Assembly: GCA_017999835.1 (NCBI GenBank)
Contig: JAGNLA010000009.1
Location: forward strand, 6,378-70,377
Source: Caldisericia bacterium
GTDB lineage: Bacteria > Caldisericota > Caldisericia > JAAYUI01
DNA length: 64,000 nt
Reading direction: 5' to 3'
The position numbers and the translations under genes were made by a program. Shown piece after piece: positions 20,184 to 41,205 of this stretch. Numbering within the stretch: the stretch's first letter is position 1; every line of letters begins with the position of its first letter. The notes beneath the pieces are model-generated. The model saw only the letters and a program-made list of their open reading frames with translations. It was not told the DNA's origin and did no database searches.

Positions 20184-20196
20184 ATTTCCTGAATAC

Positions 20197-20273: not shown

Positions 20274-20279
20274 AAGAAG

Positions 20280-20353: not shown

Positions 20354-20377
20354 ATATTGTACAACTACTTTTCAAAG

Positions 20378-20454
20378 TGGTCGGGGAGGGCAGATTCGAA
20401 CTGCCGACCTTCTGGTCCCAAACCAGACGCGCTACCAAACTACGCCACTCCCCG
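20378..20454 (-). tRNA. tRNA-Pro(TGG)
   Basis: CGGGGAGTGGCGTAGTTTGGTAGCGCG-TCTGG-TTTGGGA-CCAGA...AGTTCGAATCT...CCCGACCA. Confidence 0.96.
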
Positions 20455-21291: not shown

Positions 21292-22547
21292 TTTTTCACC
21301 TCAATTGTTTTTGTGTCTTCATAATATTGAACTTGAGCTCCGAGAATGTCGGAGACAAACCTCAAAGGAACCATGGTTGTACCACTGCAGTATATTCTTG
21401 GTGGTACACTCGACGGAAGCAACGTTTTTTTGCCGTCGACATAGGCGTATTTGTCGCCAATTTTCAACTCGATTTTTTTGGGACTGGAGTAAACTATTGT
21501 GATCTTTTGAGTCGCGGAATCCCAGGTGATTTTCCCGCCCAAGGGTTCCACTACCTGCCTGACCGGAACCAGAGACCTTCCATTTTCAATTCTAACGGGG
21601 CAAGATAGGGCTTTTTTATTAGAATTGATTTCATACACATAGCTCCCGACCGTGAATCTTAAAACGGTCTGTTTTTGGGGAGAGAGGACATTTTTCACTA
21701 CACTCTTCTGGGCTCCCGTGTACGAGAAGGCATAAAGGCTACCGTTATCGGAATTGCTTGCGACCACCACTTCACTTGAGCCAATGTTCACTGTCATTGA
21801 TGCAGCTTGTGGTACTGAACCAAACTGCCTGACAAAAGTCCCTGAAGGAGTAAATGTTTTTACGGTAGAGCCATCGAGCACAAAAATCATGTCTTCACTC
21901 TCTGAAGCAACTATTGCCATTGGATTCGACAATAAGCCTTTACCAAACGAGCCATTTGTTTTTTTGTCATCTCTGTTGGCTGTTTTTACCTGGCCATCAT
22001 CGAGAATGTAGAGTTTCTTTGCGCTTGAAAAATAGGAAGCTCTGGGGTCAACCAGTCCAGTGACTTCTTTGTTCAATTTACCATAGTCGTCTATTACAAC
22101 GACCTTTTTCTGGCTCCTGTCAACAATTGACACCCAATAGAGGTCGTCAGAACGCAGATAGCAGATGTCAGTTGGGTTCTTAATCTTGCCTGATCCCGAT
22201 CCCGAACCCGCTACCTGACGGATGTACTTGTAACTGGTCTTTGTTTCGTACTCAAACAATTTAGAAGCGCCATTTCCAGAAGACACCAGGGCAATTTCGC
22301 CTGCACACCAGCAAACCGCAAGCCCGGTCATTCCGGATATCTTGCCACTGTCAAGGACTGAGGTTTCAAAGCTGTAACGTTTGTCAAAACGGTAAACGTT
22401 CTGTGTTTTTGTGTTTAAGACGAAAATATTGCCATAATGGTCGGATGAAATGACAATCGAAGCATCTATACCCCTGGCAGGTATAGATGATGTCAGCAAG
22501 GACAGAACAATGATTGTCATCAATATTTTCTTCATTTGCTTCTCCAT
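21288..22547 (-). CDS. Secreted NHL/6-bladed beta-propeller protein with C-terminal stalk (Cu amine oxidase N-terminal-like) domain
   Basis: Signal peptide (MKKILMTIIVLSLL; alternative start 22535), NHL-like repeats (GSGKIKNPTDI, SFGKGLLSNPMAI, FVRQFGS) and stalk motifs GRSLVPVRQVVEPLGG.ITWD and TMVPLRFVSDILGA.V. Confidence 0.82.
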   Translation of the reverse strand: MEKQMKKILMTIIVLSLLTSSIPARGIDASIVISSDHYGNIFVLNTKTQNVYRFDKRYSFETSVLDSGKISGMTGLAVCWCAGEIALVSSGNGASKLFEYETKTSYKYIRQVAGSGSGSGKIKNPTDICYLRSDDLYWVSIVDRSQKKVVVIDDYGKLNKEVTGLVDPRASYFSSAKKLYILDDGQVKTANRDDKKTNGSFGKGLLSNPMAIVASESEDMIFVLDGSTVKTFTPSGTFVRQFGSVPQAASMTVNIGSSEVVVASNSDNGSLYAFSYTGAQKSVVKNVLSPQKQTVLRFTVGSYVYEINSNKKALSCPVRIENGRSLVPVRQVVEPLGGKITWDSATQKITIVYSSPKKIELKIGDKYAYVDGKKTLLPSSVPPRIYCSGTTMVPLRFVSDILGAQVQYYEDTKTIEVKK

Positions 22548-22615: not shown

Positions 22616-22645
22616 AAACCGCCCTTCATAAATGAAGGGCGGTTT
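22616..22645 (-). terminator. Intrinsic terminator after array member 1
   Basis: AAACCGCCCTTCAT-aa-ATGAAGGGCGGTTT inverted repeat 19 nt past the stop at 22665. Confidence 0.75.
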
Positions 22646-22664: not shown

Positions 22665-25600
22665 TCACTTCTGATAAGTGAGTGTTATCTGTTTTGCTGT
22701 TGCGTTCCAGTCAACCTTTGCATCAAGATTTTCTGCAAACCATCTAAATGGAAGGCAGGTTTTGTTATTGATGATGGCTGGATACAAAGTACCCTTGGTA
22801 TTGTAAGTTACTTCCTTGCCGTTGATTTTGCCTTTGGTTTTATTGATCCAGAGTTCAAGAACTTTCTTGGACCCATTTGCTTTAATCTGGGTAAGGGTAA
22901 CTTTCTTTTCTTTGGCATCCCAAGCGACTTTACAATCGAGAAGTACTGCGATTTCTGCGATTGGCATGTATGTGTTGCCATTGAGCACATTGTGCGGTTT
23001 TGCAAAGGATGTTGCTGGCGCAGTTTTGAGAGGTGTTTGCTCAATACCATTGACGGTCCATGCTGTCTTGCCAATGGTCAAAACGATAACAGTCTGCTTT
23101 GGCTTGGCGGTAAAGGTGATTGTTTTCTTTGTTGTGTTTCCAGCAACGTCAGATGCAGAAACTTCAACAGTATTGACTCCATCAACCACAGTGTGGTCGA
23201 GTGTGAAGATTCCGAAATCGCCTTCAGTTGACTCGAGGTTTGCGATGCTGCCGTTGATATAAACTGTTGCTGTGGATTCGGTTTTGACTTTGATTATCAC
23301 CACATCATCCGGAGCAAGTACATCGGTTGGGGCAGGAGAGACAACTTCGATGTTTGGAGCAATGGTGTCAAGCGTGATAGTTCTCTTTACAACATTTTCG
23401 TTGCATGCCTGGTCACGTGCAATGAACTCAATTACGTTTGGACCTTCTTTGAGATTGTTGACTGTATGCTTAAATTTGAATTCTACTGAACCAGAATTGA
23501 CCGTTTCATAGATTTCGCCAGCAAGAAGTTGGATTTCTTTGCCATCAACCTTGACGAAAACAGAATCAGTTACCTGATATTTTTCGTTGTCGCCATCGGT
23601 GAGCATTTCAGTAAATCCACGTTCGCCTTCGACGGTGAAGGTCTTTTTGTTGGTTACCTTATCAGTTTTTGGTTCCGTGATTGTAATTGGCGGTAAAACT
23701 GTATCAAGGTAGAAGTCAACTGTCTGTGGTTCTTCCTTAATACCGTTGAATTCTGCCTGCCATGTGATTTTTGCTCTCTGGGAACCTGGATTGAGTCTCG
23801 ATTCACCACCGTAGATAACGGCTTTGTCTGGCTGGTTATTAAACCAGAATGTTATCTTTGCTTCTGGGTTGAGACACTCAAAACCTAGAATTGGTGGTTT
23901 GTTGAACCATTCACCGCAATTTGGTTTGTCCGGGTCTTTAAAGTAAATCCACGATTTGAGTGGAGCTGGCTCAAGGACGTATTCTTCGGACTTGATAGCT
24001 TCATCTTTGTCTGTGGAGACCAAGAGAGTGTACGAACCGTGCTTACGTGGGTTTTTGATGCCAGCGTTATTCTTGAAGTCGACCATTGACCATTCAAATG
24101 GCTTGCATGATGAATCGGTTACAAGTGTAACTTTCATACCGTTGACTGTTACCTCTTTGACCGGTTTGTCGCATATCGTGACTGCGTCAGTATTGATCGT
24201 TGCCGGAACGACTGTTCCTTCTGGGAATTCGACATAAAGATTGTCCCCTGGTGAGAGTTCGCCGCCTGCTGAGGGCTGATACTTGAACTTGTAAGATGAG
24301 ACAACTGAGCCCTGGTAATCACCAAGTTCCAGTTCGGTGATGAGCGGTTTGGATTTTACAATTTCAAACGATTCAAAATCGTATTCCTTGCCATCGACCG
24401 TGAAAGTAAGTTTGTACGTTCCAGGAACGGGATTTCTGATGCCAGCCTGAGCGTTGATCTTTACTTTGAGTGTGCCAGCGATTTCAGCTGCAGCGGTAAA
24501 GGTGAGTTTTGTTTTGTCGATACCTACTGTTCCAGAGTATGCCTTACCATTGATTTCTACCTGTTTTGCATCAATCTTTTCCGGCATCATCGTTGTATCT
24601 GGGAAGTTGACTGTAAATGTTGCACCGGCTTTGATTTTTACATCTGCTGGGAGCATACCGACTGCATAATAGGCAGCGGTTGATTTTTCAAAGTTCGGGG
24701 TGACCTTAACGGTTGGCTTAACGCCGACAATGTACGCAGCTGACTTGATGTTGTTTGGTTCCGATGATGATGATACCCAAGCAAAGTTTTCGCCTGAGGC
24801 GGATGGGTTTTTGACACCGGCTTTTTCAAGGAATGTAATGGTTCCCTGACCAAGGTTGTCAATATCGGTTGGAACGATGATTGTGATCTGGTTGTATCCT
24901 TCGCCTGCTGCAACCTGTGGTGAGCTGTTGACGAAAGCACCATTGATTTTGATTGATTTTAACGGGAATTTCTTTGGAAGAGTGAAAGAAGTTGGCAGTC
25001 TGAGCATGATTGTCGAGCTACCACCATCGAGTGCTCCGCCTTCACCGGTTTTGAAGTTTACTGAAACGGTTGTGACTGTGTCGTTGTCTGGAGGGTCAAG
25101 AACCACATTGACATCAGAAATATCAGAGCACGGAAGCATGAAAGCTTCTGACTCGACTGGTGTTGGTTCTGGGAGTGTTGCCATTGCTACTCTATATCTG
25201 CCTGGTGTAGCTGGAGCGATAAGACCTGTTGTTTTTGAGGTGTTAATGTCGATTGAGTTGTAACCTTTTCTCCAAGCTTCGATTTCGAGCGGAGTGTTGA
25301 CCTGATAAGATCTCTCTTTGCAATTGTTGATAATAATCGGGTATCCCTGGCATTCTGAGCATGGCGAGTAACCGATTGATGTCGAACGAATGATTGTTTT
25401 CATTCTGTCCATTCTCTGTGTTTGGTCACGTGGAAGACCAGGAAAGATTGTGCCGAGTTGCCAGCAACCAAGGCCTGATGGATCCTTTATCATTCTCATC
25501 TTGCCAAAGCTTGAATCGCAAACACTGCTCCATGCTGGAAGACTGTCTTTGTTGCAGTCATTGCACGGATCGAATTCTGTTGCGCCTTTTTCGTCCTTTA

Positions 25601-25994
25601 CTGCATAGACCTTACCAATATCTTTTTCTTCCTGGTTGTTGTATTTTTTGAAATACGCATCATTTGGAATGAACCTCTGATTTTCCTTCTGGCCTGTGAT
25701 TGCTGGAAGTCCATCGCAGATAGAGTCAACAACTTTCTGTGGATCTGTTGTTGATGCAGCTTCATCGATGGGGAACCACATCTTGAGCCAGTCGTGTATC
25801 TTTATGTTTACATTGTATCTCATGTAAACCTTGAAAGCTGTTAGAGTATTTGCTCTTGCAGCAGAAAGTCTGGGCTTTATCATGTTCAACTCAACGTGAA
25901 CTGGGCCAAGGGTTGCATTAATCGTTGGAATGGTCGTCAGAGCCAATCCAAAAACTAAAGTCAGAGTGATTGCGATTTTAATAATCTTCCTCAT
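22665..25994 (-). CDS. Large secreted Ig-like-repeat surface protein with stalk domain (array member 1, 1109 aa)
   Basis: Signal peptide, conserved family N-terminus LGPVHVELNMIKPRLSAARAN, three ~125-aa repeats (FP.GT..P...AGI.NP..G.Y), Ig-like domains (LKEGPNVIEFIARDQAC) and a stalk domain (TYMPIAEI, LPFRWFAENL). Confidence 0.85.
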   Translation of the reverse strand: MRKIIKIAITLTLVFGLALTTIPTINATLGPVHVELNMIKPRLSAARANTLTAFKVYMRYNVNIKIHDWLKMWFPIDEAASTTDPQKVVDSICDGLPAITGQKENQRFIPNDAYFKKYNNQEEKDIGKVYAVKDEKGATEFDPCNDCNKDSLPAWSSVCDSSFGKMRMIKDPSGLGCWQLGTIFPGLPRDQTQRMDRMKTIIRSTSIGYSPCSECQGYPIIINNCKERSYQVNTPLEIEAWRKGYNSIDINTSKTTGLIAPATPGRYRVAMATLPEPTPVESEAFMLPCSDISDVNVVLDPPDNDTVTTVSVNFKTGEGGALDGGSSTIMLRLPTSFTLPKKFPLKSIKINGAFVNSSPQVAAGEGYNQITIIVPTDIDNLGQGTITFLEKAGVKNPSASGENFAWVSSSSEPNNIKSAAYIVGVKPTVKVTPNFEKSTAAYYAVGMLPADVKIKAGATFTVNFPDTTMMPEKIDAKQVEINGKAYSGTVGIDKTKLTFTAAAEIAGTLKVKINAQAGIRNPVPGTYKLTFTVDGKEYDFESFEIVKSKPLITELELGDYQGSVVSSYKFKYQPSAGGELSPGDNLYVEFPEGTVVPATINTDAVTICDKPVKEVTVNGMKVTLVTDSSCKPFEWSMVDFKNNAGIKNPRKHGSYTLLVSTDKDEAIKSEEYVLEPAPLKSWIYFKDPDKPNCGEWFNKPPILGFECLNPEAKITFWFNNQPDKAVIYGGESRLNPGSQRAKITWQAEFNGIKEEPQTVDFYLDTVLPPITITEPKTDKVTNKKTFTVEGERGFTEMLTDGDNEKYQVTDSVFVKVDGKEIQLLAGEIYETVNSGSVEFKFKHTVNNLKEGPNVIEFIARDQACNENVVKRTITLDTIAPNIEVVSPAPTDVLAPDDVVIIKVKTESTATVYINGSIANLESTEGDFGIFTLDHTVVDGVNTVEVSASDVAGNTTKKTITFTAKPKQTVIVLTIGKTAWTVNGIEQTPLKTAPATSFAKPHNVLNGNTYMPIAEIAVLLDCKVAWDAKEKKVTLTQIKANGSKKVLELWINKTKGKINGKEVTYNTKGTLYPAIINNKTCLPFRWFAENLDAKVDWNATAKQITLTYQK

Positions 25995-26199
25995 CCGATA
26001 CTCCTTTCAGGGACAAAAAAACTGCGACAAGTCTAACATGATAACCATTCATTCAAATTAAAACTTGTCACCTGCAAAGATTTAATCAGATCAACTCAAA
26101 ATTCCATTTAAGAAAGTCCTAAAACGAGTTAATTCAGGATTAAGAATTGTTAGTTCCCATATTGGTTTTTTTGGTACACTCTTATGCTTGGAGGTTTTT

Positions 26200-27237
26200 A
26201 TGAAAATGAAAACTTTAATAAACGTGATGATTGCAGCATTGATGGTCGTAACACTGGCATCCTGCGGAGAGGCTCCGCCTGAAGAATTGTCGTTCATAAC
26301 TGGCACCGTAGTTGAAAAAATTACCAGGGCTCCAATTCCAAACATTGTAATAAATATTGATGGTCAGTCGGTTACAACGTCGTCAGACGGCAGATATATC
26401 GTATCCAGGCTTGAAAAAGGCTCAAAGCATGAGATCGAGTGCATCAATAGCAAGTACAATGATTTCAAGCTCACTGATGTCGTTGCCGTGTACCCGAGTG
26501 CAACACAAGACATAGAGCTTGAAATAAAAACTCTAGAATCACCGACTATCCCATCGATTTCATCCATATCAACCAAACAGCTCAAGTCTTTCGATTATGT
26601 ATTAAACTTTGGCGTTGACGCAAACCAGATCACATTTGAAGTCAATGGCAGCTACACTGCTCCAAATTCATACACAATCAACATGAAGCAGTTCAAACAA
26701 CAACAGATACAAGTCGGACCTGACGATCAAAAGAAGGAAAGCCCAACAATCAAATTGACGGAAATCAATGGCAATCAATGGATTGATGAGGGAGACGGGT
26801 ACACTGTGGTTCCCAACGATCAATCCAGAGCTGGGTTTAGGGATATGTTTAATATCATTGAATTGAGCAATTCAATGATAACAAAAGCTCTTAAGAATGT
26901 GAAAAATCTTACCGAGGATGGCAATTCCCAAATTGGTGGAATCAACTGTAAAAGATACAGGGGAATTACTGTATTTGATACAGAGAGATCAACTGAAACC
27001 AAGACAGGAAAAAAAGTGATCACCGATAAAGTCCTGTGTGACTTTAACATGGCTGTGGCAGTAGACCAGCAGTATGGCAATGCCCCTGTCGATGTCGAGC
27101 TCATGCTCTACTATAAAGATCTCATGGTCAGAACATACACCCACTTCACTTTGAGCAACCTCAACAACCCAATCGTTATCCAAGTCCCTGAGGTAAAAGA
27201 TTCTTCAAATAAGATTGAGATCAAGAACGCTCCGTGA
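26200..27237 (+). CDS. Lipoprotein with carboxypeptidase-regulatory-like domain and possible LolA/LppX-like C-terminal fold
   Basis: GGAGG RBS, lipobox LASC, ITGTVVEKITRAPIPNIVINIDGQSVTTSSDGRY.V..L, and beta-rich C-terminus with GNSQIGGINCKRYRG. Confidence 0.7.
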   Translation: MKMKTLINVMIAALMVVTLASCGEAPPEELSFITGTVVEKITRAPIPNIVINIDGQSVTTSSDGRYIVSRLEKGSKHEIECINSKYNDFKLTDVVAVYPSATQDIELEIKTLESPTIPSISSISTKQLKSFDYVLNFGVDANQITFEVNGSYTAPNSYTINMKQFKQQQIQVGPDDQKKESPTIKLTEINGNQWIDEGDGYTVVPNDQSRAGFRDMFNIIELSNSMITKALKNVKNLTEDGNSQIGGINCKRYRGITVFDTERSTETKTGKKVITDKVLCDFNMAVAVDQQYGNAPVDVELMLYYKDLMVRTYTHFTLSNLNNPIVIQVPEVKDSSNKIEIKNAP

Positions 27238-27251
27238 TCTTGTAGATTGAG

Positions 27252-27290
27252 AAACAAAAAAGGCCAGCATGAAACTGGCCTTTTTTGTTT
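27252..27290. terminator. Bidirectional intrinsic terminator
   Basis: AAACAAAAAAGGCCAG-catgaaa-CTGGCCTTTTTTGTTT: 16-bp stem between convergent genes. Confidence 0.85.
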
Positions 27291-27301
27291 GACTAATCAA
27301 A

Positions 27302-29284
27302 TTATTGATTCATCAATACAAATTCGATATAGTCATTTTTGCTCGTGCTCATGACAATCTCATCTTCAGCGCTAATTTCACTTGTCAATTCGATTATTGT
27401 TTTTATCTTTAATTTTGACATTTTTAAAACTGAAATAGGCGTTGGCACATCAAAAATTAACCTTTGACCATCAACTCTTGCAGACTGAGACAAGACCTGG
27501 TCAATTGTAATGTTGTCTGATTTGATAAGATTTGACAACTTAAAGGCTTTTGGAAACCTCAAAGACACCCAGTCCCCAACGTCAAGATTTCCAAATGATG
27601 ATGGTCTGAATTCAAATTCGATCGAAATTATCATATCGTTCCTTCTGACCACTTTCAGATTGGCAATTCTTGGCTTTGCGGCTTTGATGAAATAATCCAG
27701 CATTTCTGGCTTGCTCCCATTTATCGAAACCGCAAAATAATAAAAGCCGGTCGAAGGCGTGGTCAGTTTGGCCGACTCATCGATGTAAATCATAGCAACG
27801 CCTGTCAAAACCTCTGGAATGGTGAACTTTAAAATGTCGTTTGAGAATTCTGCTGGCTTTGTTAACGGTTTGCCATCCACCAAAACGCTCTTGCCATTTA
27901 TACTTCTGTCTTTTGAAAAACCGGTTGGAAATTTGATTGAGATTTCTGAGTTTTTGTCAACCTTGTCCATGGGGGTGGATATCGAAAAAGCCAAAGAGCA
28001 TGAAGTGAATTCCTCGTTTGGAACTATTTGGACACCTTTGACATCTAGCAGTTTTAAAGGTTCCGATCGCACAAACTCCGGCTCCGACGAGGTCATGACC
28101 TCGATAAAAACTTCTCCTCCGGTTGGCTTGATGCCAAGCAGGAACCGTTTGTCAAAAGATATTTTTGTTTCCGACATCGAATTGATGTTTACCGGAACGA
28201 TCATTGTCAATTCAAGATAATCGCCTTTGTTTTCAACAGTGGGGGAACCGAGTAAAATGCAGTTATTGATCATTATCATCTTTTTATTAGGAAGAACTGT
28301 CATTGACAGGTTTTTTGGAAAACGGACGGTAATTGTCGAAAGTTTTGCATCCAAAGCCCCACCTTCACCAGTTATAAACGTAATCTCAGGCGATTTTTCT
28401 TCGTCTGTTATTGTGAATCCTGAGCATTTGACATCTGAAACTTTCGAGCAGGGTAAAACATAGGCTTCAGACTCGACGGGTTCCGGTTCAGGAGTTGTTG
28501 CCACAGCAAGCCTGTATCTTCCTGGAGTAGCTGGTGAGATGATGCCAGTCTCAATCATTGAATCGTAGCTAAGAGCATTGTAACCTGCTCTCCAAGTTTC
28601 GACTTCCATAGTTGGCCTACAGATTATTGAGCGCTGAGCATCGTCGTTGACCAATCCAGGGTAGCCCATCTCATAGCACCAATGATACCCAACTCCTTGT
28701 CTTCTGCTTATTTTAATCAGTTTTTCTCCTCTCTTATCCCTGTCAATTGGCAAAGCAGGCATGATCGTTCCCATCAACCACCAGCCCAATCCTGATTCGT
28801 CCTTGACGGCACCGTTGCTGTCCTTTTGAAGCAGGTTCTCAATGAATTCATCCAGTTGCGCATCATTGCCAGGTTCAACAGCCCAATCAATGGCTCCGTT
28901 TGATCCTTCAATCTTATATAATTTATATATTGTTTTTTCTTTGGACTGGGGGTATTTCTTGAAATATTTTGAGTTTGGAAGAAACCTCGGCGATTCCAAT
29001 TCACCGTTGAGAGGAGGCAAACCTTCACAAATAGAACTTTTCAGGTTTTCGCTAACAATATATTCGCTTGTTGGATACCAAACCCTTATGGTGTCATGAA
29101 TCTTAATGTCTTTATTGAACCTAAAGGTAACACTCATTGCGTTTGCTTTGTTTGCCCGTGCAGGTTTGCCCAAATTCCAGTATGTCTTTAGGCTGATATT
29201 GACTGGTCCAACAACTGCTGAAACTGAGTTAGATATACAGGTCATTGCCAATAAAATGACAATAATTCTAATTGTCGTCTTCAC
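27302..29284 (-). CDS. Secreted array member 2 (660 aa, no stalk domain)
   Basis: GTG start after GGAGG, signal peptide, family motifs VGPV...ARANK, IKIHD, CEGLP, ESGLGWWLMGT and PATPGRYRLAVATTPEPEPVESE. Ends after the third Ig-like repeat. Confidence 0.8.
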   Translation of the reverse strand: MKTTIRIIVILLAMTCISNSVSAVVGPVNISLKTYWNLGKPARANKANAMSVTFRFNKDIKIHDTIRVWYPTSEYIVSENLKSSICEGLPPLNGELESPRFLPNSKYFKKYPQSKEKTIYKLYKIEGSNGAIDWAVEPGNDAQLDEFIENLLQKDSNGAVKDESGLGWWLMGTIMPALPIDRDKRGEKLIKISRRQGVGYHWCYEMGYPGLVNDDAQRSIICRPTMEVETWRAGYNALSYDSMIETGIISPATPGRYRLAVATTPEPEPVESEAYVLPCSKVSDVKCSGFTITDEEKSPEITFITGEGGALDAKLSTITVRFPKNLSMTVLPNKKMIMINNCILLGSPTVENKGDYLELTMIVPVNINSMSETKISFDKRFLLGIKPTGGEVFIEVMTSSEPEFVRSEPLKLLDVKGVQIVPNEEFTSCSLAFSISTPMDKVDKNSEISIKFPTGFSKDRSINGKSVLVDGKPLTKPAEFSNDILKFTIPEVLTGVAMIYIDESAKLTTPSTGFYYFAVSINGSKPEMLDYFIKAAKPRIANLKVVRRNDMIISIEFEFRPSSFGNLDVGDWVSLRFPKAFKLSNLIKSDNITIDQVLSQSARVDGQRLIFDVPTPISVLKMSKLKIKTIIELTSEISAEDEIVMSTSKNDYIEFVLMNQ

Positions 29285-31289
29285 TGTATGCCTCCTCGGT
29301 GCCGAGTGATTCATCAATGTTATCGCCTTTTGAGGTGGAAAGACACATCAGCTCGCTTCCAGTCAGATACTGTGGCAATCTCATGCCAATGCTGATTACA
29401 TACTTGTATTTGCCAGAAACGACTTGTTTGACCGGTGACTTAAAAATCAGTCTTGTGCCTTCGACTTTTGCATTTTCAACCTTAGCCTTGTCAACCGTAA
29501 TCCATTTCCTGTCCAATGATTTTGGCAGAATGAAACTTTGAGGAAACTGCAATGAAATCTCATCACCCAGGTCAAGATTACCAAAGGATGATGGCTGAAA
29601 ATCAAAAGTGACGTTGGCATAAGTATTGGGCTTTTTTGACGACATGACCAGATTCCCAATCCTGGCCTTGGCTGGCTGAATGTAGATGTCATCAAACGAA
29701 TATCTATCCGAGCCAATCTCAAGCTTTACCAAGTAAAAACCAACCGATGGATTAACGATGGCGCAATTTTGGAGAAGGGCGACAACCAGCTTGTTTTTGA
29801 TGTCTGAAGGTGCAGACATCTCAATGGTGTTACCCGAAATTTTTGGGTTAGTAGCAGGATGCACGCCGTTTATCAGAATGTCGTTGTTGGTGATTTTTTC
29901 GCCATGTGCAAAAGCCTCAGGCAAAATTATTTTGAGTGGCGTTTGAGGAGGATAAGTTTTGCCATTATCAAGCAAAAGCCTTATGCTAATGGTGCTTTCA
30001 CGGTATTCCTCAGGAGGTTGAATGGCTAAACTCGTTTCTTTCAGTTTCAGCAGCGCCTGGGATTTCACAAAATTTGGCTCGGAGGAAGTAGAAACCTCCA
30101 CAAAACAATCCTTCTCGTCCGGATTGTAGGTTGTGTGAGTAAAAATGTCAAAAACAACATCGACTTTTGAAGAATTGTTGACATCCACAGGTGAAACAAG
30201 TTTTACAACGGTCTGACCATCAATTTTTGTAATCTCTGGATCAGATTCTAGCCTTGTCCCGTTCACCTTTATTAGGCGTTTTGAGAACTTTGGGGATATT
30301 GAAAATTGCTCTGGCAACTTGACGAAAATGGTTGAATATTTGTTGTCCAGTGCTCCGCCTTCACCTGTCCGAAACGAGACCGTGAAAGGATTTTTAGTGG
30401 AAAAACCAAATTCTGTTGCGTTGCAAACAACATTGCTGACATCCGAGCACGGCAGGATGAATGATTCGGACTCAACTGGAACAGGTTCAGGCCTGGTTGC
30501 AACAGCTACACGGTAACGTCCGGGAGTGGCAGGAAAAACAATCCCAATATCTTTTGTCACATTGACATCAGCCACGTTATAGCCTTTCCTCCAGGGCTCG
30601 AGTTCAAAAGGATTGTTTACGGAAATTGATCTTTCTTTGCAATTGCTGTTAATATGATAGTTGATGGTTAAGCAAGCACATGGATAGCCAATATTGATGT
30701 GATACCTAATCTTTTTCATGAATTCTATTCTTTTTTCTACATCCCGAGGCAAGGCAGGCAAAACCGTTCCAAGCATCCAATATCCCAATCCTGATGAGTC
30801 TGATATTAACTTTGGACTTGAAGAATCAAGGTGACATGCATCGCGATTATCCGATTTCTCATCTTCAAGATCTATGAAACTGACTTCATGCATATGTTCT
30901 CCTGAAGCACGGTACAACTTACCAATCTCTTTTTCTGGTGAATCTGGGTATTTTTCAAAATAGGCTTTGTTGGGGACAAACCTTGGCGATTCAAGACCAC
31001 CAGTAATTTTTGGCAAGCCATCGCAGAAGTTTTTCTCCAGCTGTTCCTTAGTTTGATAAGACATGTTTTCGTCCAAAGGCAGCCAAACCTTAACCCAATC
31101 GTGAATTTTTATGTTTTTTGTGTACACAAAGCTAACCACGAAATTGTTGGCTGCATTCACCCTTGAAGAGCCAATGGTTTTATACCATCTGCCAAAATCA
31201 AGCTTCACCGGCCCAACAGTGGCCCTTCCCAAAGTTTGACTCCACAGAATAATCACCAGCGCAAGAGAAATGAGTACAATTCTATTCAT
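29268..31289 (-). CDS. Secreted array member 3 (673 aa, no stalk domain)
   Basis: Signal peptide, TVGPV, NIKIHDWVKVWLP, FCDGLPKI, SSGLGYWMLGT and PATPGRYRVAVAT.PEPVPVESESFILPCSD. Ends after the third repeat. Confidence 0.82.
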   Translation of the reverse strand: MNRIVLISLALVIILWSQTLGRATVGPVKLDFGRWYKTIGSSRVNAANNFVVSFVYTKNIKIHDWVKVWLPLDENMSYQTKEQLEKNFCDGLPKITGGLESPRFVPNKAYFEKYPDSPEKEIGKLYRASGEHMHEVSFIDLEDEKSDNRDACHLDSSSPKLISDSSGLGYWMLGTVLPALPRDVEKRIEFMKKIRYHINIGYPCACLTINYHINSNCKERSISVNNPFELEPWRKGYNVADVNVTKDIGIVFPATPGRYRVAVATRPEPVPVESESFILPCSDVSNVVCNATEFGFSTKNPFTVSFRTGEGGALDNKYSTIFVKLPEQFSISPKFSKRLIKVNGTRLESDPEITKIDGQTVVKLVSPVDVNNSSKVDVVFDIFTHTTYNPDEKDCFVEVSTSSEPNFVKSQALLKLKETSLAIQPPEEYRESTISIRLLLDNGKTYPPQTPLKIILPEAFAHGEKITNNDILINGVHPATNPKISGNTIEMSAPSDIKNKLVVALLQNCAIVNPSVGFYLVKLEIGSDRYSFDDIYIQPAKARIGNLVMSSKKPNTYANVTFDFQPSSFGNLDLGDEISLQFPQSFILPKSLDRKWITVDKAKVENAKVEGTRLIFKSPVKQVVSGKYKYVISIGMRLPQYLTGSELMCLSTSKGDNIDESLGTEEAYSEDDN

Positions 31290-31301
31290 AAAAAACTCCC
31301 C

Positions 31302-34300: not shown

Positions 34301-34589
34301 TTTCATCAATTTTTGGTAAACCATCACAGATGTTTTTGAGCAAATCCTCAGGATTGGCGTATTCAACCGCTTCAGACGACGGAAACCAAACCTTTATCCA
34401 GTCATGAATTTTGATGTTTACATTATAACGCATATAAACCTTGAAGCTTGTCACCTGGTTTGCTCTGGCATGGGAATATTTTGGCTTTATCATATTCAGC
34501 TCAACTCTGACCGGGCCAACTGTTGCCATCGCAGGAATGGCTGATATTGTCATTGCAACAAGAATCGCAACCGCCAAAAGTTTCCGCAT
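31302..34589 (-). CDS. Secreted array member 4 (1095 aa, with stalk domain)
   Basis: Signal peptide, family N-terminal motifs, repeats, Ig-like domains and stalk motifs TFVPFKPL and TTMVPLRFVAENLG. Confidence 0.85.
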   Translation of the reverse strand: MRKLLAVAILVAMTISAIPAMATVGPVRVELNMIKPKYSHARANQVTSFKVYMRYNVNIKIHDWIKVWFPSSEAVEYANPEDLLKNICDGLPKIDENIDNPRFLPNKKFFEKYPNSKLATKRQLFTVAEYNKPGILYDNPEPSGAADWSDVCGEKDNKRRIVKDPSGLGCWMLGTVMPAIPVDDTERKEWSRRIGMSISIGYNPCDCQPFSMTSTCTQRMLNFIAPLEVEAWRKGYNSIDLNTSSYTGIVAPATPGRYRVSVATEPEPEPVESESFILPCSDISDVTFEQFPIRKQFTVFSVSFMTSEGGALDKGMSTIKLKLPKGFSMTSVPFKNILVNDVVVKQAKTTNTSDGQQILEITSPVDVDNFGKVKVDFLSNPSFFSILERNNNEIMVSTSSEGNFIKAEEVEDSKTARMVLYPAEEYANADIFLTLPLRDGKVYQQKTEIEITFDNGFVLPDKPKLGCFQVNGLDSDVVIDKEKRTITLKSQFELSKKCIVSISSKAGIVSPQTGIYDFEVKVGDDDIDSEPFDIFASKSHIYQLELSKQQAAMSTEVSFIFRPSSQKPIKSGEEIGVEFPKGSTLPYQVLAEEVSIDSAKAKSVRTEDRTIWITLTRVIDFWKPARVQLKCFVTNPREKDDYFIKVRTRDGIQAISDKLTLIPAPLVTKLIVNNQQPNPCESGWYGYPPTISFECLNPEADIFFWYNGQLDKAKLFDGAFNLMPECEVINIGWSSSFNGDKEEPKSQDLFLDTDRPYIRLSNRSSTITNQPIKILSGQAEARIVSYFGDEQSYVLIDSVFVRFNGNEERVFEGGLVKKTEFDKRDLNYSYKLPLNLGLNKVEVVARSLACNETIRHLKIILDTTPPQIEMVSCPQSYKCFPGDLVKVSFKTERGMYAYCNNKVIPEESNDGKTSIFYTMYSVVQGKNRIVLKVTDFAGNTTTKEIVFASTSTNTINLTLDKPSWDVNFEKQPKLVCAPTATFKDVKLKALNGTTFVPFKPLAPFLGCSVEWNQIDKSVTILQRNGDEIINTIIMWLGKSTALVNGKQVKIGKNDSICLVAINGTTMVPLRFVAENLGTIVSFDSGTKQITLKYSK

Positions 34590-34593
34590 GATT

Positions 34594-34727
34594 CCCCCCT
34601 ATTTTGGATAAGTCAGCGTTATCTGTTTGGTTTTGGCATCGAAGACGACACTGGCGCCGAGGTTTTCAGCCACAAACCTGAGCGGAAGCATGGTTTTGCC
34701 GTTTATTGACACTGGATAAAGCGTTCC
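34594..34727. repeat. 134-bp near-identical direct repeat, copy 1 (3' end of member 5)
   Basis: Matches 37898..38031 at 133 of 134 positions by manual comparison. Confidence 0.9.
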
Positions 34728-37700
34728 CTTTGGGTCGATGTTGACGGTTTTCCCATCGATCTTAGCTTTTGTTTTTTCAAGCCAAAGCTCGATGATTTTC
34801 TTCTCATTGTTTCTCAATTTTTGTTCTAGAGTAACTTTCTTTTCTTTTACATCCCAGAAAACAAGGCTGTCAAAGAAAGGTACCAATTGCGCAACCGGCA
34901 TGTATGTGCTACCGTTCAAATCCTTATATCTGCTGTCTTTGAAAGTTGCAGTTGGAGGAACTGCAAGTGGTGTCTGGACTTTGCCATTGACCATCCATTC
35001 TTTTTTGTCGAGTGTCAGGACGATGATGGTTTTCTTTGGCTTTGCTACAATTTTGTAGCTGAGGCTGCGATTGTTACCAGACTGGTCGGTCACGGCAATG
35101 CTAACAATATTGTCGCCTTCGACAAGACTTATGTTGGCAGAGAAAACCCCAACTCCATCTTCTGACGAAATGATCTCGGCAGACATTCCGTTTATCTGCA
35201 CAGTCGCGCTTGCCTCAGTTCTGATAAGAACATTGACATTGTCGCCATCAATAAATATTTCATCATTTTTTGGGCTCACCATTTCAGCTTTTGGCGGTTG
35301 TGTGTCTAGTGTTATCTTCTTTTTCACCACTGTTTCGTTGCATGCCTGGTCGCGGCCTATTATTTCAACAATGTTTTCTCCTTCATTCAGTTGGATGACA
35401 TGGTCGAATTTGTATTTTATTGAGCCTGAATTTTTTGTTTCATATATTTGGCCTTCCAGCAACAAGGTTTCTTTACCATTGAATTTTACAAAGATTGAAT
35501 CGGTTGCCTGATACTTATTATTGTCCCCATCGGTAAGCATTTCGGTAAAACCGCGTTCGCCTTCAATTTTATAGTTTTTATGGTTTGTCATCTCACCTGT
35601 TTTAGGTTTTGTCACTCTTACCGACGGCGGCATGGTATCCAGATTGAAATCATAAGCCCTTGGCTCCTCTTTTACTCCATTAAACTCTGCCTGCCAGGTT
35701 ATGACTGTTCTCATGGAACCTGGGTTGAGCCTTGATTCGCCACCGTAGATAACGGCTTTGTCTGGCTGGTTATTAAACCAGAATGTTATTTTTGCTTCTG
35801 GGTTCAGACAGTCAAAACCTAGAATTGGTGGTTTGTTGAACCAATCACCACAGTTTGGCTTGTCCGGGTCCAAAAAGTATATCCAAGATTTGAGTGGGGC
35901 TGGTTCGAGGACATATTCTTCAGAAACCATCGGCTCAGCCTTGCCAATGATAACTTTGAGAGTATATGAACCGTGTTTTCTAGGATTTTTTATGCCAATG
36001 TCGATGGAAACATCAACTGGTTTGGCTGATGTAATCTCAACTGGAGTCGCAATAGTCAGCGTTGTTGAGTCAGCCTTGGCCGAAATGGTTTTCTTCCGAT
36101 TGACGGTTATATCTGCGATATCAAAGCTTTTTGGCAAGACCGTCCCCTGAGGAAACTCCACCATGAAAGTATCGCCAACTGACAACGGGGTTTGCGAAGG
36201 AGCCACTAAACTGAAGAAATATTTGGACTCTACACTCCCCTGGTAGTCTGACAATTCGAGAAGCGTTATTAAACCAACTGATGGCTTTATCTCAAACTCT
36301 CCGCAACCGTAGCTGCCAGAAGGAGTAGTCAACGTTATGGAGTGTGTGCCAGCTTTTGGGTTTCTGATTCCAGCATTTTTGTTAATTGTGATCTGGACAT
36401 AGTACTGGATGTTTGCCGGTATCGTGATTTTCAAAGAGTTGCCGTCAATATCTATGTGTTTTGCCCTCAAACCTGAAACATAGACGTTACCAGGTTCCAT
36501 TGTTTTTGGGAACTTGAAACCTTCAGAAAAATTCAAGCTTATGACCGATCCGGCTTTCAAAATTTCGCCATCCGGAAGAATCGCTCTGCAAAAAATGGAT
36601 GAATACTTGTATTCGTGATCAGGGGTCACAACGGCCAATGGCGTGGAACCAAGTGCCACCGGTTTTGAACTGATGTAGTTAGGCTCAGAAGTGGTTGAAA
36701 CTTCTATCGATATTGGTTTTTTTGAAGGTATGACTCTGATGTTTGTTGAGCTCGAAAACTCAATCGAGGTCTGACCAAAGTTCGCCACGTCCGTCGGAAC
36801 AATTATCTTGATTACCGTTCCGTCTGCGCTTTTCTCGACTTTGGGTGATGAACTGACGAAAGCGCCGTTGAACTTTATCGATTTTTCTGGAAACTTGTCC
36901 GGAGCGAATATGCCAGGCGGGAACTTGATATTGACCACTGACGATCCGCCGTCCAGCGCTCCACCCTCGCCAACTTTGAAGCTAACATTCAATATTGTCT
37001 CGGCATTATTGTTTGGATAATCCTGAAGCACAACATCGGACACATCAGAGCAAGGAAGCACGAAGGCTTCCGACTCCACAGGTACAGGTTCAGGTTCGGT
37101 GGCAACGGCTAGCCTGTACCTGCCAGGAGTAGCCGGGGCGATGATGCCGGTGGTTTTGGAAGTGTTGAAATCGATTGAGTTGTAGCCTTTTCGCCAAGCC
37201 TCTAATTCTACTTCTTCAAAATATGTCAATGTTGCTTGTTTGCAGCTATTCTCAAGCAATACATATTCACAACCACAGGAGCTGTAACCAAGCAACACTG
37301 AACGGTAGACAGTTCTCATCCTTTTGCTTCTTTGATCCTTGTCATAAGGCATTGGTGGAAATATTGTTCCCAACATCCAACAGCCTAGACCAGACGGATC
37401 CTTGACCAATCTGAGATTTTTGGTATCTCCTCCACAAACATCATGCCAATCTTTGACATTATCCAAATCTGGTAATTTGAAGAATTCAGCATTACTGTAG
37501 TAGTCAAGAATCTTGTAAAACGTGCTGTAATCTTTGAGTTCTGAGTTTTCATATTTTTTAAAATACTTTTCATTTGGCACAAATCTGGGGTGTTCCCTCA
37601 CACCGGTTATTGGAGGCAGACCATCACATATCTGCCTGATAACCTCTTCCGGGTTGTCCGACTGGATGCTTTCATAAATCGGAAACCAGACTTTTAGCCA

Positions 37701-37889
37701 ATTATGAGCCTTTATATTGACATCGTATCGTATATATATCTTGAACGCTGTAAGGGAGTTCGCCCTTGCTGCTGAAAGCCTCGGTTTTATCATGTTCAGT
37801 TCTACATGTATTGGCCCAAGTACGGCAAAGGTTGCCGCCGTGTTCCCAAAAACAATCACCAACACCAGCAATAGTAATATTTTCTTCAT
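34599..37889 (-). CDS. Secreted array member 5 (1096 aa, with stalk domain)
   Basis: Same architecture as members 1, 4 and 6; ends KTMLPLRFVAENLGASVVFDAKTKQITLTYPK. Confidence 0.85.
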   Translation of the reverse strand: MKKILLLLVLVIVFGNTAATFAVLGPIHVELNMIKPRLSAARANSLTAFKIYIRYDVNIKAHNWLKVWFPIYESIQSDNPEEVIRQICDGLPPITGVREHPRFVPNEKYFKKYENSELKDYSTFYKILDYYSNAEFFKLPDLDNVKDWHDVCGGDTKNLRLVKDPSGLGCWMLGTIFPPMPYDKDQRSKRMRTVYRSVLLGYSSCGCEYVLLENSCKQATLTYFEEVELEAWRKGYNSIDFNTSKTTGIIAPATPGRYRLAVATEPEPVPVESEAFVLPCSDVSDVVLQDYPNNNAETILNVSFKVGEGGALDGGSSVVNIKFPPGIFAPDKFPEKSIKFNGAFVSSSPKVEKSADGTVIKIIVPTDVANFGQTSIEFSSSTNIRVIPSKKPISIEVSTTSEPNYISSKPVALGSTPLAVVTPDHEYKYSSIFCRAILPDGEILKAGSVISLNFSEGFKFPKTMEPGNVYVSGLRAKHIDIDGNSLKITIPANIQYYVQITINKNAGIRNPKAGTHSITLTTPSGSYGCGEFEIKPSVGLITLLELSDYQGSVESKYFFSLVAPSQTPLSVGDTFMVEFPQGTVLPKSFDIADITVNRKKTISAKADSTTLTIATPVEITSAKPVDVSIDIGIKNPRKHGSYTLKVIIGKAEPMVSEEYVLEPAPLKSWIYFLDPDKPNCGDWFNKPPILGFDCLNPEAKITFWFNNQPDKAVIYGGESRLNPGSMRTVITWQAEFNGVKEEPRAYDFNLDTMPPSVRVTKPKTGEMTNHKNYKIEGERGFTEMLTDGDNNKYQATDSIFVKFNGKETLLLEGQIYETKNSGSIKYKFDHVIQLNEGENIVEIIGRDQACNETVVKKKITLDTQPPKAEMVSPKNDEIFIDGDNVNVLIRTEASATVQINGMSAEIISSEDGVGVFSANISLVEGDNIVSIAVTDQSGNNRSLSYKIVAKPKKTIIVLTLDKKEWMVNGKVQTPLAVPPTATFKDSRYKDLNGSTYMPVAQLVPFFDSLVFWDVKEKKVTLEQKLRNNEKKIIELWLEKTKAKIDGKTVNIDPKGTLYPVSINGKTMLPLRFVAENLGASVVFDAKTKQITLTYPK

Positions 37890-37897
37890 ACTCTCAG

Positions 37898-38031
37898 CCC
37901 CCCTATTTTGGATAAGTCAGCGTTATCTGTTTGGTTTTGGCATCGAAGACAACACTGGCGCCGAGGTTTTCAGCCACAAACCTGAGCGGAAGCATGGTTT
38001 TGCCGTTTATTGACACTGGATAAAGCGTTCC
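37898..38031. repeat. 134-bp near-identical direct repeat, copy 2 (3' end of member 6)
   Basis: Matches 34594..34727; the single difference is gacGac versus gacAac. Confidence 0.9.
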
Positions 38032-41000
38032 TTTGGCGTTGTACTTGACCTCCTTGCCGTCAATCCTGGCAACCGTTTTGTTGAGCCAGCATTCAATGAC
38101 TTTGGCGTTGCCATTTGGAAGATGCTGATTGAGTATCATCTTCTTTTCCTTTGCGTCCCATTCAGTTGTGCAGTTAAGAAGATCTGCGATATCCCTAATT
38201 GGCATATAGGTTGTGCCATTTAGGGCTTTGTGCCTTAGATCAGTGAACTTGCTGGTTGGAGGTGTCGTTAATGGGTACTGAGCCGCACCGTTGACTGTCC
38301 ATTCTTTTTTGTCGAGTGTCAGAACTATGACGGTTTTCTTTGGCTTGGCTGTGATTACCAGGTTCATGGATGTGGTGTTGCCACACACGTCTTTTGCGCT
38401 GACTACAAAAATGTTTTTTCCGGCATCGAGTGTGACGTTGGCAGAAAATATTCCAGTATCGCCTTCGGTAGACTCAATTACTGCCAATGTTTTGTCGATA
38501 TAGACCATTGCGTTTGCTTCGGTTTTCACCCTTATTGTAGTTGAATCGCCTTCGGTAAAAACCTCATTCTCTTTTGGACTGAGGACTTCAAACCTTGGCG
38601 GTTCGGTGTCTAGCGTGATGACTCTTTTTATTATCGTTTCGTTGCAAGCCTGGTCACGTGCAATCACCTCGATTACGTTTGGACCTTCCTTGAGAGTGAT
38701 GGTATGCTGAAATTTATACTCGATTGAATCTTGATCTTTGGTCTCGTAGATTTCACCTTGCAGAAGCTGGGTTTCCTTACCTTCAAACCTTACAAACACT
38801 GAATCGGTTACCTGGTACTTCTCATTGTCGCCATCGGTGAGCATTTCGGTAAAACCGCGTTCGCCAGAAACAAAAAAAGAACTTGAGGATGTGCTGGCAT
38901 TCGATTTTGGGTAATTCAATGTCAATGGCGGAGTGACAGTGTCAATGTTCAAATTGTAGGTTTGTGGCTCTTCCTTAACACCGTTGAACTCTGCTTGCCA
39001 TGTGATTTTTGCTCTCTGAGAGCCTGGCATGAGTCTGGCTTCTCCACCGTAGGTTACAGATTTGTCTGGCTGGTTATTAAACCAGAATGTTATTTTTGCA
39101 TCAGGATTCAGGCAGTCAAAACCTAGAATTGGTGGCTTGTTGAACCAGTCACCACAGTTTGGTTTGTCCGGGTCTAAAAAGTATATCCAAGATTTGAGTG
39201 GTGCTGGCTCGAGAACGTATTCTTCAGAAACCATCGGCTCTCCCTGGTCAACATAAACTTTCAAATTGTACGAACCGTGTTTTCTTGGATTTTGTATGCC
39301 GATGTCGATGGAAACATCGGCCGGTTTGATGGAAGTAATTTCGATTGGTGTGGCAATGGCAAGCGTTGTTCCATTAACGCCTGTCGATATTGCGGTTTTG
39401 CCGCCAACTGTCACCTTGGCAAGATCAAAATCCCTTGGTAAAATCGTTCCTTCCGGGAACTCCACCCTGAAAATGTCGCCAACAGCCAGTTGAGCTTGAG
39501 ATGATGGGGTCAACTTGAACGAATACTTTGATTCCAAACTGCTTTGGTAGTTTGAGAGAACGAGGTTTGACACCAATCCCTTAGTCGGTATTATCTCGAT
39601 CTGACCACAATCATAAGTGTCTTTTGGAGTGGTTATCGAGAATGAATACGTGCCAGCTTTGGGGTTTGTGACCCCGGCCTGGGCGCGCACGGTTATGGCG
39701 ATAAAATATTCAACATCTGTCGGGAGCGTGATTTTGAAGGTGTTTCTCTCAACGGCGAGGGCTTTTGTCGGTACGCCCATAACACTGACGTTTGCAGGTA
39801 TGATGCTTGCTGGAAGCTTGAAACCTTCAGGAAAATTCAGCTTTATGTCTGTTCCGACTTTCAGCTTTTCTCCATCAGGCAGAGGGGTCCTACAGGAGAT
39901 GAAGGAATTTTTGTATTCTTCGTTGGGAGTGACCACTGTCGTGGGGGTCGACGCAAGGGCAAGCGGGGCAGATTTGATGAAATTCGGTTCTGACGATGTT
40001 GAAACCTCAACAACCAACGGATCTCTTGTCAGCTTGCAGGCAATACCGGAATTGGAAAGAAACTCGATTTTTGCCTTGCCAAGGTTGTTTACATCGGTTG
40101 GGCAGACAATTGACATTTCAGCAAAACCTACGCTTTGCGTGATCTCAGGAGGGCTTTGTACAAATGCCCCGTTGATTTTGATTGATTTTGCTGCAAATCT
40201 CTTTGGAATGACAAATGTTGCCGGCAACTTGAGCATGATTGTTGAGCTACCGCCATCCAAGGCTCCGCCTTCTCCGGTTTTGAAGTTGACCGTCAAAGCA
40301 TTGCTGGAATTGTTCATGAGGTTGTCCTCAAGTGTGACATCTGAAACATCCGAGCATGGCAGGATGAAGGATTCCGACTCCACAGGCACGGGTTCAGGTG
40401 TCGTCGCCACAGCAAGCCTGTACCTACCAGGAGTCGCTGGACCGATGATGCCAGTGGTTTTTGATGTGTTAATGTCAATTGAGTTATATCCTTTTCTCCA
40501 AGCCTCGACTTCCAATGGGGTGTAAAGCAACAATGACCTTTCAATACAATTATTGATTACTCGAGGATAACCGGAGCAGATGCCACATGGCGAATACCCA
40601 ATTGACGTCGATGAGTCAAGAGACTCTAACGCCTTCTTCCTGTCTTTGTCATCAAATGGCATGGCTGGCATAATCGTTCCAAGCATCCAGAATCCTAATC
40701 CTGAAGGATCTTTAACAACCCTAGGTATTGATTTACCTATATTGCATATATCGCCCCAATTTGTCACATTTTCTGATGCTGGTATATTGTAGAATTCTCC
40801 ATATCCTTTCTCGCCAGTTATTGCATACATCTTTCCAGTTTTTTTTAATTCTAGATTGTCAAACTTTTTAAAATATTCTTCGTTTGGGACAAACCTTGGA
40901 TCGGATATCTTTTCATCGATTTTTTGAAATCCATCGCATATTTTACTTGCGATTTCTTCTGGATTGTCTGTTAAACCATTTTCATCTATAGGAAACCAAA

Positions 41001-41205
41001 TTTTGAACCAATCATGAATTTTTATGTTTACATTATACCTTATGTAAACTTTGAATGCCGTAATCCGATTCGCCCTTGCTGCTGAAAGCCTCGGTTTTAT
41101 CATGTTCAATTCGACACGTATCGGACCAAGTGTTGCAAAAACCGGTGATACAAAAGCTATCGAAAGAATCAAAGCTGTAACCAAAATACCCAATTTGCCC
41201 TTCAT
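37903..41205 (-). CDS. Secreted array member 6 (1100 aa, with stalk domain)
   Basis: ATG 41205 (MKGKLGILVTALILSIAFVSPVFA signal peptide, AAAGGGG RBS). Same architecture; its C-terminus is identical to that of member 5. Confidence 0.85.
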   Translation of the reverse strand: MKGKLGILVTALILSIAFVSPVFATLGPIRVELNMIKPRLSAARANRITAFKVYIRYNVNIKIHDWFKIWFPIDENGLTDNPEEIASKICDGFQKIDEKISDPRFVPNEEYFKKFDNLELKKTGKMYAITGEKGYGEFYNIPASENVTNWGDICNIGKSIPRVVKDPSGLGFWMLGTIMPAMPFDDKDRKKALESLDSSTSIGYSPCGICSGYPRVINNCIERSLLLYTPLEVEAWRKGYNSIDINTSKTTGIIGPATPGRYRLAVATTPEPVPVESESFILPCSDVSDVTLEDNLMNNSSNALTVNFKTGEGGALDGGSSTIMLKLPATFVIPKRFAAKSIKINGAFVQSPPEITQSVGFAEMSIVCPTDVNNLGKAKIEFLSNSGIACKLTRDPLVVEVSTSSEPNFIKSAPLALASTPTTVVTPNEEYKNSFISCRTPLPDGEKLKVGTDIKLNFPEGFKLPASIIPANVSVMGVPTKALAVERNTFKITLPTDVEYFIAITVRAQAGVTNPKAGTYSFSITTPKDTYDCGQIEIIPTKGLVSNLVLSNYQSSLESKYSFKLTPSSQAQLAVGDIFRVEFPEGTILPRDFDLAKVTVGGKTAISTGVNGTTLAIATPIEITSIKPADVSIDIGIQNPRKHGSYNLKVYVDQGEPMVSEEYVLEPAPLKSWIYFLDPDKPNCGDWFNKPPILGFDCLNPDAKITFWFNNQPDKSVTYGGEARLMPGSQRAKITWQAEFNGVKEEPQTYNLNIDTVTPPLTLNYPKSNASTSSSSFFVSGERGFTEMLTDGDNEKYQVTDSVFVRFEGKETQLLQGEIYETKDQDSIEYKFQHTITLKEGPNVIEVIARDQACNETIIKRVITLDTEPPRFEVLSPKENEVFTEGDSTTIRVKTEANAMVYIDKTLAVIESTEGDTGIFSANVTLDAGKNIFVVSAKDVCGNTTSMNLVITAKPKKTVIVLTLDKKEWTVNGAAQYPLTTPPTSKFTDLRHKALNGTTYMPIRDIADLLNCTTEWDAKEKKMILNQHLPNGNAKVIECWLNKTVARIDGKEVKYNAKGTLYPVSINGKTMLPLRFVAENLGASVVFDAKTKQITLTYPK

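Follow-up and report, generated by a model that had tools for sequence, protein, structure and literature searches.

A lineage-restricted array of six paralogous, cysteine-rich, predicted surface proteins in a Caldisericota genome

Results

Six paralogous genes for secreted, cysteine-rich proteins

We analysed a 64,000-nucleotide (nt) stretch of a Caldisericia bacterium genome (GenBank assembly GCA_017999835.1, contig JAGNLA010000009.1, positions 6,378 to 70,377 of the forward strand), here called the window and numbered from its first letter. Open reading frame (ORF) listing and translation placed six paralogous genes, M1 to M6, all on the minus strand, at 22665-41205. A sequence-only reading of the same DNA had described six paralogous, secreted, Cys-rich genes at this place, and the ORFs, their alignment and the signal peptides bear this out. 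All six reading frames are intact, a signal peptide is present in 6/6 of the proteins, and pairwise identity to M1 is 31-55% among array members. The six proteins contain 8-20 Cys each; M4 has 20 and M1 has 16, the latter agreeing with the earlier hand count.

M1 (22665-25994, minus, 1109 amino acids (aa)) is monocistronic, with a strong Shine-Dalgarno (SD) sequence, GAAAGGAG as its ribosome-binding site, and an intrinsic terminator of its own downstream (22616-22645, minus; a 13-bp stem with 7 GC pairs). It is separated from M2 by a gap of 1307 nt that holds a divergent lipoprotein gene. The other five genes are closely packed: M6 (37903-41205, minus, 1100 aa) comes first and is followed by M5 (34599-37889, minus, 1096 aa), M4 (31302-34589, minus, 1095 aa), M3 (29268-31289, minus, 673 aa) and M2 (27302-29284, minus, 660 aa; a GTG start with GAGGAGG upstream). 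The gaps are 13 nt for M5/M6, 9 nt for M4/M5 and 12 nt for M3/M4, and M2 and M3 overlap by 17 nt. M2-M6 thus form one 13.9-kb operon unit, in line with the five-member operon of about 14 kb proposed earlier. Its 3' limit is a bidirectional terminator with perfect 16-nt arms (27252-27290, unstranded), which ends both this operon and the convergent lipoprotein gene. An SD-like sequence lies 5-9 nt upstream of each of the six genes. Because they share one operon, M2-M6 are probably co-expressed.

A chain of beta-sandwich domains with an elaborated repeat as its head

To examine the architecture of the proteins, we built AlphaFold2 models with a 79-sequence alignment, which reached a pLDDT of 91.5 for the head and 89.7 for full-length M1. 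The M1 model is almost wholly beta. A signal peptide (aa 1-27) is followed by the head, D0 (aa 28-292; window 25119-25913), and then by D1 (aa 293-425), D2 (aa 426-548) and D3 (aa 549-678), which together span aa 293-678 (window 23961-25118). D4 (aa 679-766), D5 (aa 767-878) and D6 (aa 879-965) occupy aa 679-965 (window 23100-23960), and a stalk domain (aa 966-1109; window 22668-23099) ends the chain. M4, M5 and M6 share this full architecture of D0-D6 plus stalk, with the long forms having a mature mass of about 119 kDa, while M2 and M3 are short forms that consist of signal peptide-D0-D1-D2-D3 and have no anchor.

The three repeats of about 125 aa that had been noticed from sequence are real: D1, D2 and D3 are beta-sandwiches in the model, and profile-profile comparison with hhalign relates them to one another with a probability of >99%. 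By the same kind of comparison D5 and D6 are related (97%), and the C-terminal half of the head (D0b, aa 171-292) is homologous to D1 (96%) and D3 (90%). Thus, the unrecognised N-terminal domain, which could have been taken for an unrelated new fold, is the family's own repeat in a fourth and more elaborate version, to which a Cys-rich alpha/beta addition has been joined.

Toward the C-terminus, the extra immunoglobulin (Ig)-like domains and stalk proposed for four members were recovered. Against a gathering score of 24.2 bits, Cu_amine_oxidN1 (PF07833) scored 64.7 bits in M1, 72.6 in M4, 57.4 in M5 and 66.9 in M6, and the Pfam scan gave no PF07833 match in M2 or M3, so that membership is 4/6. 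Domains resembling the Ig domains Glucodextran_B and Big_13 precede the stalk in the four long members; in the D5-D6 region, Glucodextran_B (PF09136) scored 30.6 bits in M1, 37.8 in M5 and 34.3 in M6 against a cut-off of 27, with M4 at 23.7, and Big_13 (PF19077) stayed below 27 in every member. The stalk of M1 is basic (pI 9.7), and D1 and D3-D6 of M1 are acidic.

The head is the constant part of the protein

Among the six window paralogs, mean pairwise identity is 58% in D0b, 41% in D0a, 37% in D1, 25% in D2, 30% in D3 and 52% in the stalk. The head is therefore the constant part and the D2-D3 shaft the variable part, the inverse of the constant scaffold with variable tip that the sequence-only reading had drawn. 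Per-domain omega agrees: D0b, at 0.01-0.12, is among the most constrained domains, and in most pairs no domain is under stronger constraint than the head. Invariant throughout are the motifs IKxH, RFxPN, DxSGLGxW, ExWRxGYN, PATPGRYR, PEPxPVESE, LPCS and EGGALD. The motifs listed earlier are present, except that GPVxVELNMIKP is complete only in M1, M4, M5 and M6, with M2 and M3 keeping just GPV.

The invariant residues of D0 include many acidic, basic, His and aromatic ones. C93 occurs in 76/76 sequences and C289 in 78/79, and a CxxC at 212/215 is common. An attempt to derive disulfide pairs from Cys co-occurrence was confounded by phylogeny, and just C93/C289 and the C212/C215 CxxC stand out. 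Structural disulfides and the binding of something are both candidate roles for the conserved Cys of D0.

Between two sister genomes, omega is 0.10-0.22 for array genes, 0.09 for the M1 ortholog and 0-0.08 for housekeeping genes. Values of 0.09-0.22 indicate that the members are functional genes, all of them under purifying selection. In every domain of intact genes omega is <=0.36. No simple sequence repeats (SSRs), homopolymer switches or invertible-promoter repeats were found as signals of phase variation, and the array contains no recent gene-conversion tracts: there is no long identical DNA, and identity is <=91% over 44 nt.

All named relatives belong to Caldisericota

Residues 1 to about 650 of M1-M6 matched no Pfam or NCBIfam family, and a Pfam search with D0-D3 returned nothing meaningful even at E<=10. 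PDB sequence searches with M1 and with a D0-D3 profile gave nothing below E 0.04. The earlier statement that this N-terminal region belongs to no named family therefore holds for Pfam, NCBIfam and the PDB. As a side observation, a precomputed match to PF27332.1, an accession that is not in the Pfam copy searched, is attached to one homolog (P0007, 77% identical), so that part of the sequence may already belong to a Pfam family of very recent date.

A profile search and structure comparison, the checks proposed with the sequence-only reading, matched the head to no characterised enzyme or S-layer family. In Foldseek against the PDB and BFVD, the head had no match at E<=1e-3, and its top matches were the Ig-like hydrophobins YweA/BslA (E 0.04, TMq 0.28). 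For this reason we did not adopt readings of the head as an enzyme, a phage-receptor-binding protein or a known adhesin head. The full-length model matched just generic multi-Ig chains, namely hydin-type ASH domains, PrgB, macroglobulins, mastigoneme and SbsC.

Across 5.8 billion proteins, a profile search yielded 79 clusters, and HMMER run exhaustively over 1.84 billion representative proteins yielded 88 relatives, about 25 of them with a complete head. The remainder match only through D0b-like repeats, in proteins that are either about 970 aa long or giant and that share the same C-terminal Ig-plus-stalk module. Every relative with a name comes from a metagenome-assembled genome (MAG) of Caldisericia, Caldisericales or Caldisericota. 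When large-scale protein searching was repeated with a D1-D3 profile, just 9 proteins came back and none was a relative from outside the lineage; a genome scan, restricted by a pattern pre-filter, returned 9 loci. These matches point to an uncharacterised family confined to Caldisericota. The window itself holds a seventh, more distant relative (61197-64000, minus), which belongs to the class of about 970 aa annotated as 'stalk domain-containing'; what is visible runs from the end of D0b through D1-D2-D3-D4-D5-D6 to the stalk, the 5' end of the gene being cut by the window edge.

A conserved core and a variable remainder across genomes

Comparison of array order and copy number across related genomes showed that content differs. 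M1 is the conserved member: it has an ortholog in every genome examined (73% identical in L002), and in one genome an M1-type gene is the sole copy at the locus, still beside the lipoprotein gene. M1 is the ancestral member, with a conserved ortholog across Caldisericales. In sister genomes, where housekeeping proteins are 82-91% identical to those of the window, an array with the same MatE and lipoprotein flanks encodes proteins of 1083 / 1094 / 188+775 (split) / 1098 / 541 aa, against 1100 / 1096 / 1095 / 673 / 660 aa in the same order in the window, and M2-M6 have no partner there above 55% identity. Orthologs exist in other assemblies for M2 (65-80% identical), M3 (67-84%) and M4 (65-88%), and none above 59% was found for M5 or M6. 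L014-L016, which are closer relatives, preserve M4-M3-M2-lipoprotein-M1 in this order (65-89% identity) and differ upstream. The array is thus not invariant, yet it has a stable core.

In the gene upstream of the M4 ortholog, the C-terminal (D4-stalk) module is nearest to that of M6 in L014 (1-1261) and to that of M1 in L015 (1-1329), which suggests that paralogs have swapped their C-terminal modules. Forms with no anchor (D0-D3, D0-D2 and D0-D1) turn up repeatedly across genomes, and in the window and L014-L016 they stand beside anchored ones.

Two further observations concern the relatives. In L002-L008 (for example L003 13282-16197) one member is split into pieces of 188 + 775 aa, both conserved (omega 0.10 and 0.22), and in L014 (1271-4557) the M4 ortholog is split into 825 + 277 aa; these may be real splits, recoding events or assembly errors. 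Between L005 and L006, the genes for the M1 ortholog, the lipoprotein and the redoxin have a synonymous divergence (dS) of 0.57-0.88, against 0.10-0.30 in flanking genes, which hints that alleles have been exchanged at the core of the surface genes.

Neighbouring genes

The lipoprotein gene between M1 and M2 (26188-27237, plus, 349 aa) encodes a LASC lipobox and a CarboxypepD_reg domain, and its C-terminal part of about 250 aa has no family match. It is divergently paired with the M1-type gene, a pairing present in at least 5 distinct Caldisericales genomes, and its product may be a functional partner of the M1-type protein. On the other side of M1 lies a gene for a secreted 419-aa protein with two Cu_amine_oxidN1 stalk domains (21288-22547, minus), which has its own near-consensus promoter and is syntenic in sister genomes. 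Two genes downstream of M1, a thioredoxin-fold lipoprotein (20518-21291, minus) carries an LFAGC lipobox, an E/T/P-rich linker and a CPPC motif; it too is syntenic in sister genomes, yet just 50% identical there. It is of the TlpA/ResA-like type of extracytoplasmic thiol-disulfide oxidoreductase, and we only infer a tie to the Cys-rich family.

The setting is ordinary chromosome, with genes for Mfd, RNase Y, Lon, ClpX, ClpP, trigger factor, OTCase and TyrRS as well as tRNAs. The stretch from trigger factor to the surface-protein locus holds a cluster of seven tRNA genes (Gly, Leu, Lys, Arg x3 and Pro; 18800-20454, minus). The mechanically called ORF at 19038-20075 overlaps tRNA-Lys, so its real start lies further downstream (304-319 aa in relatives). 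Elsewhere in the window are a 1278-aa protein with FG-GAP and transglutaminase-core domains (56273-60109, plus), a VWA+FHA protein (51004-52302, minus) and a dual-specificity phosphatase fused to MazG (4750-5958, plus).

Discussion

A tentative model for a mixed surface coat

The interpretation that we prefer, and hold tentatively, is that these are Caldisericota-specific, Sec-secreted, rod-like, all-beta envelope proteins whose conserved heads make an assembly contact and so form a mixed coat. The parts of this model differ in strength. Signal peptides and the stalk domain agree with the earlier view of secreted, probably wall-associated proteins, and a location at the surface is highly probable. 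Wall binding would be mediated by the stalk domain; proteins with PF07833 have been recovered from the surface of Desulfotomaculum reducens as part of its surfaceome, and wall hydrolases commonly carry this domain (PMC4137172). Assembly through the heads is a proposal that we make with considerable reserve. In this model, the basic C-terminal Cu_amine_oxidN1 stalk would hold the long forms non-covalently on the cell wall, from which six beta-sandwich domains would project as a chain. The tip of the chain would be the strongly conserved, Cys-rich head D0, beside the conserved EGGALD loop of D1. This head would be the functional end, presenting a conserved contact that most likely serves head-to-head or head-to-paralog assembly, and the same contact could recruit the anchorless short forms M2 and M3 made from the same operon. 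Together the two forms would make up a mixed surface coat, with an exposed D2-D3 shaft that differs from paralog to paralog. In favour of the model are the signal peptides and ribosome-binding sites of all six genes, the basic stalk of M1, the confident structure models, the resemblance of the full-length model to multi-Ig chains alone (with SbsC and the Ig domains of PrgB among them), the strong conservation of the head, the recurrence of anchorless forms and the restriction of the family to Caldisericia.

Several points weigh against this model. Classical S-layer proteins have few Cys, unlike the 8-20 found here. Conservation of the head would be expected just as much of an adhesin that binds a ligand. 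Furthermore, no relative named Caldisericum exile is among the family matches, and the only envelope imaged by electron microscopy (EM) may therefore lack the family.

The main rival to assembly is that the proteins are adhesins, in which the same wall-anchored rod would carry a head whose binding target lies outside the cell, for example a partner cell, a polymer or a particle of mineral or sulfur, and the paralogs would differ in reach or presentation. Gram-positive adhesins are likewise built with the head at the N-terminus, a shaft of Ig-like domains and a wall anchor at the C-terminus; PrgB, SdrD, ClfB and Flo adhesins are among the Foldseek matches (weakly for D0), and many charged and aromatic residues of the head are invariant. 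However, D0 has no significant structural match to any adhesin head (best E 0.04), anchorless paralogs within the same operon would be unusual for adhesins, and there is no LPXTG motif; we regard this explanation as possible but rather doubtful. The invariant acidic, basic and His residues, the near-universal C93 and C289, the common CxxC and the nearby CPPC thioredoxin-like lipoprotein could also be read as signs of a catalytic or redox/metal-active head, that is, an enzyme outside the cell or a module that handles electrons or sulfur, displayed on a stalk and working via C93, C289, the CxxC at 212/215 and His67. This seems improbable, as the beta-sandwich core of D0 is homologous to non-catalytic repeats, no enzyme or metalloprotein in the PDB matches by fold or sequence, and the Cys pattern suits structural disulfides equally well.

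Diversification offers another account, close to the phage-evasion coat of the sequence-only reading: a variable coat against phages or predators, with paralogs alternately expressed or diversified under positive selection. Array composition does differ among related genomes, with no ortholog above 59% for M5/M6 and none above 55% for M2-M6 in sister genomes despite housekeeping identities of 82-91%; omega is above that of housekeeping genes, and C-terminal modules have apparently been exchanged between paralogs. Yet the omega ceiling of 0.36 in all domains of intact genes and the lack of switching repeats and of recent conversion tracts speak against this account; five genes sit in one, probably co-expressed, operon, and the tip is precisely the part that is conserved. 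There is little likelihood that such a coat explains the array. Least probable is that M1 alone is functional and M2-M6 are drifting, decaying duplicates. Only M1 has an ortholog in every genome examined, and split members occur in relatives, but the six frames are intact, each with an SD sequence and signal peptide, M2-M4 have orthologs at 65-88% identity, and the array genes of sister genomes evolve at an omega of 0.10-0.22.

A more speculative extension of the assembly model concerns the envelope as a whole. Just one species of Caldisericota is in culture, and the nature of the phylum's envelope is disputed. C. exile showed an 'outer membrane-like envelope' by EM, yet is without BamA and annotated outer membrane (OM) proteins (PMC4104836); Caldisericota are also without core lipopolysaccharide (LPS) genes (PMC5007114) and have been treated as having lost the OM (bioRxiv 10.1101/2021.05.31.446380). 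The family might be a building block of this envelope. Wall-anchored rods of about 30 nm would join by their Cys-rich heads into a proteinaceous canopy that looks membrane-like in thin sections, with anchorless paralogs filling the lattice. We consider this unlikely, and no C. exile member of the family was seen among the matches.

As phylum-restricted, multi-copy, confidently modelled and predicted wall-anchored rods with a conserved head, the family is a concrete candidate for the main surface structure of Caldisericota. It also yields two types of domain, D0 and the repeat seen in D1-D3, which fall outside the copies of Pfam, NCBIfam and the PDB that we searched. If these are no more than lineage-specific surface proteins, the main gain would be improved annotation of Caldisericia MAG proteins that are hypothetical or 'stalk domain-containing'.

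Comparison with known systems

The SlpA/Cwp proteins of Clostridioides difficile are a cluster of many surface-protein paralogs, with a single wall-anchoring module in common and exposed regions that vary. The array resembles them in all three respects. It differs in that the anchor is PF07833, not CWB2 (no member has a Pfam match to CWB2 (PF04122) repeats), the distal head is conserved and some paralogs are anchorless. The Geobacillus S-layer protein SbsC binds the wall N-terminally. Like other beads-on-a-string S-layer proteins and like the array family, it is a chain of Ig-like sandwiches with a wall-binding module. It (PDB 5ftx) matched the full-length model in Foldseek at E 4.8e-9, but this match is generic (rank 45, TM 0.11-0.16) and the array family is Cys-rich. 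SLH domains gave no Pfam or NCBIfam match in any member. For the S-layer class in the functional sense, a dominant envelope protein that self-assembles into a 2-D lattice, the one indirect indication is that M1 is monocistronic and has a strong SD sequence and a terminator.

PrgB (its Ig-like domains, 8beg), SdrD (4jdz/8vdk) and ClfB (3asw) appear in both Foldseek lists, and these Gram-positive Ig-repeat adhesins share with the array a head, an Ig-like shaft and C-terminal wall attachment. Here, in contrast, there is no LPXTG/sortase signal, and the head matches only at E >= 0.04; an [LIV]Px[TSA]G motif occurs in no member, the C-termini ending within the stalk domain or in acidic tails. Membership among thioester-domain (TED) adhesins was rejected: a thioester forms from a conserved Cys and a conserved Gln, the D0 invariants include C93 and C289 but no Gln, and there was no TED fold match. 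With the hydrophobins BslA/YweA (PDB 4bhu, 5mkd), the head's top Foldseek matches, the head shares an Ig-type sandwich core (TMt 0.51-0.54). It is twice as large and bears a Cys-rich insertion, and we likewise rejected membership of that family, the matches (E 0.04-0.22, TMq 0.28) not being significant and a sequence match being absent.

Closest at the C-terminus are the stalk-domain envelope proteins of Bacillota, as in the D. reducens surfaceome (PMC4137172), which likewise carry PF07833 at the C-terminus of secreted proteins; here, however, D0-D3 have no Pfam family, M2 and M3 have no stalk, and the proteins are confined to Caldisericota. We conclude that the array is familiar in kind, a paralogous cluster of Ig-repeat, predicted wall-anchored surface proteins, and that its novelty lies in uncharacterised, lineage-restricted head-plus-repeat domains.

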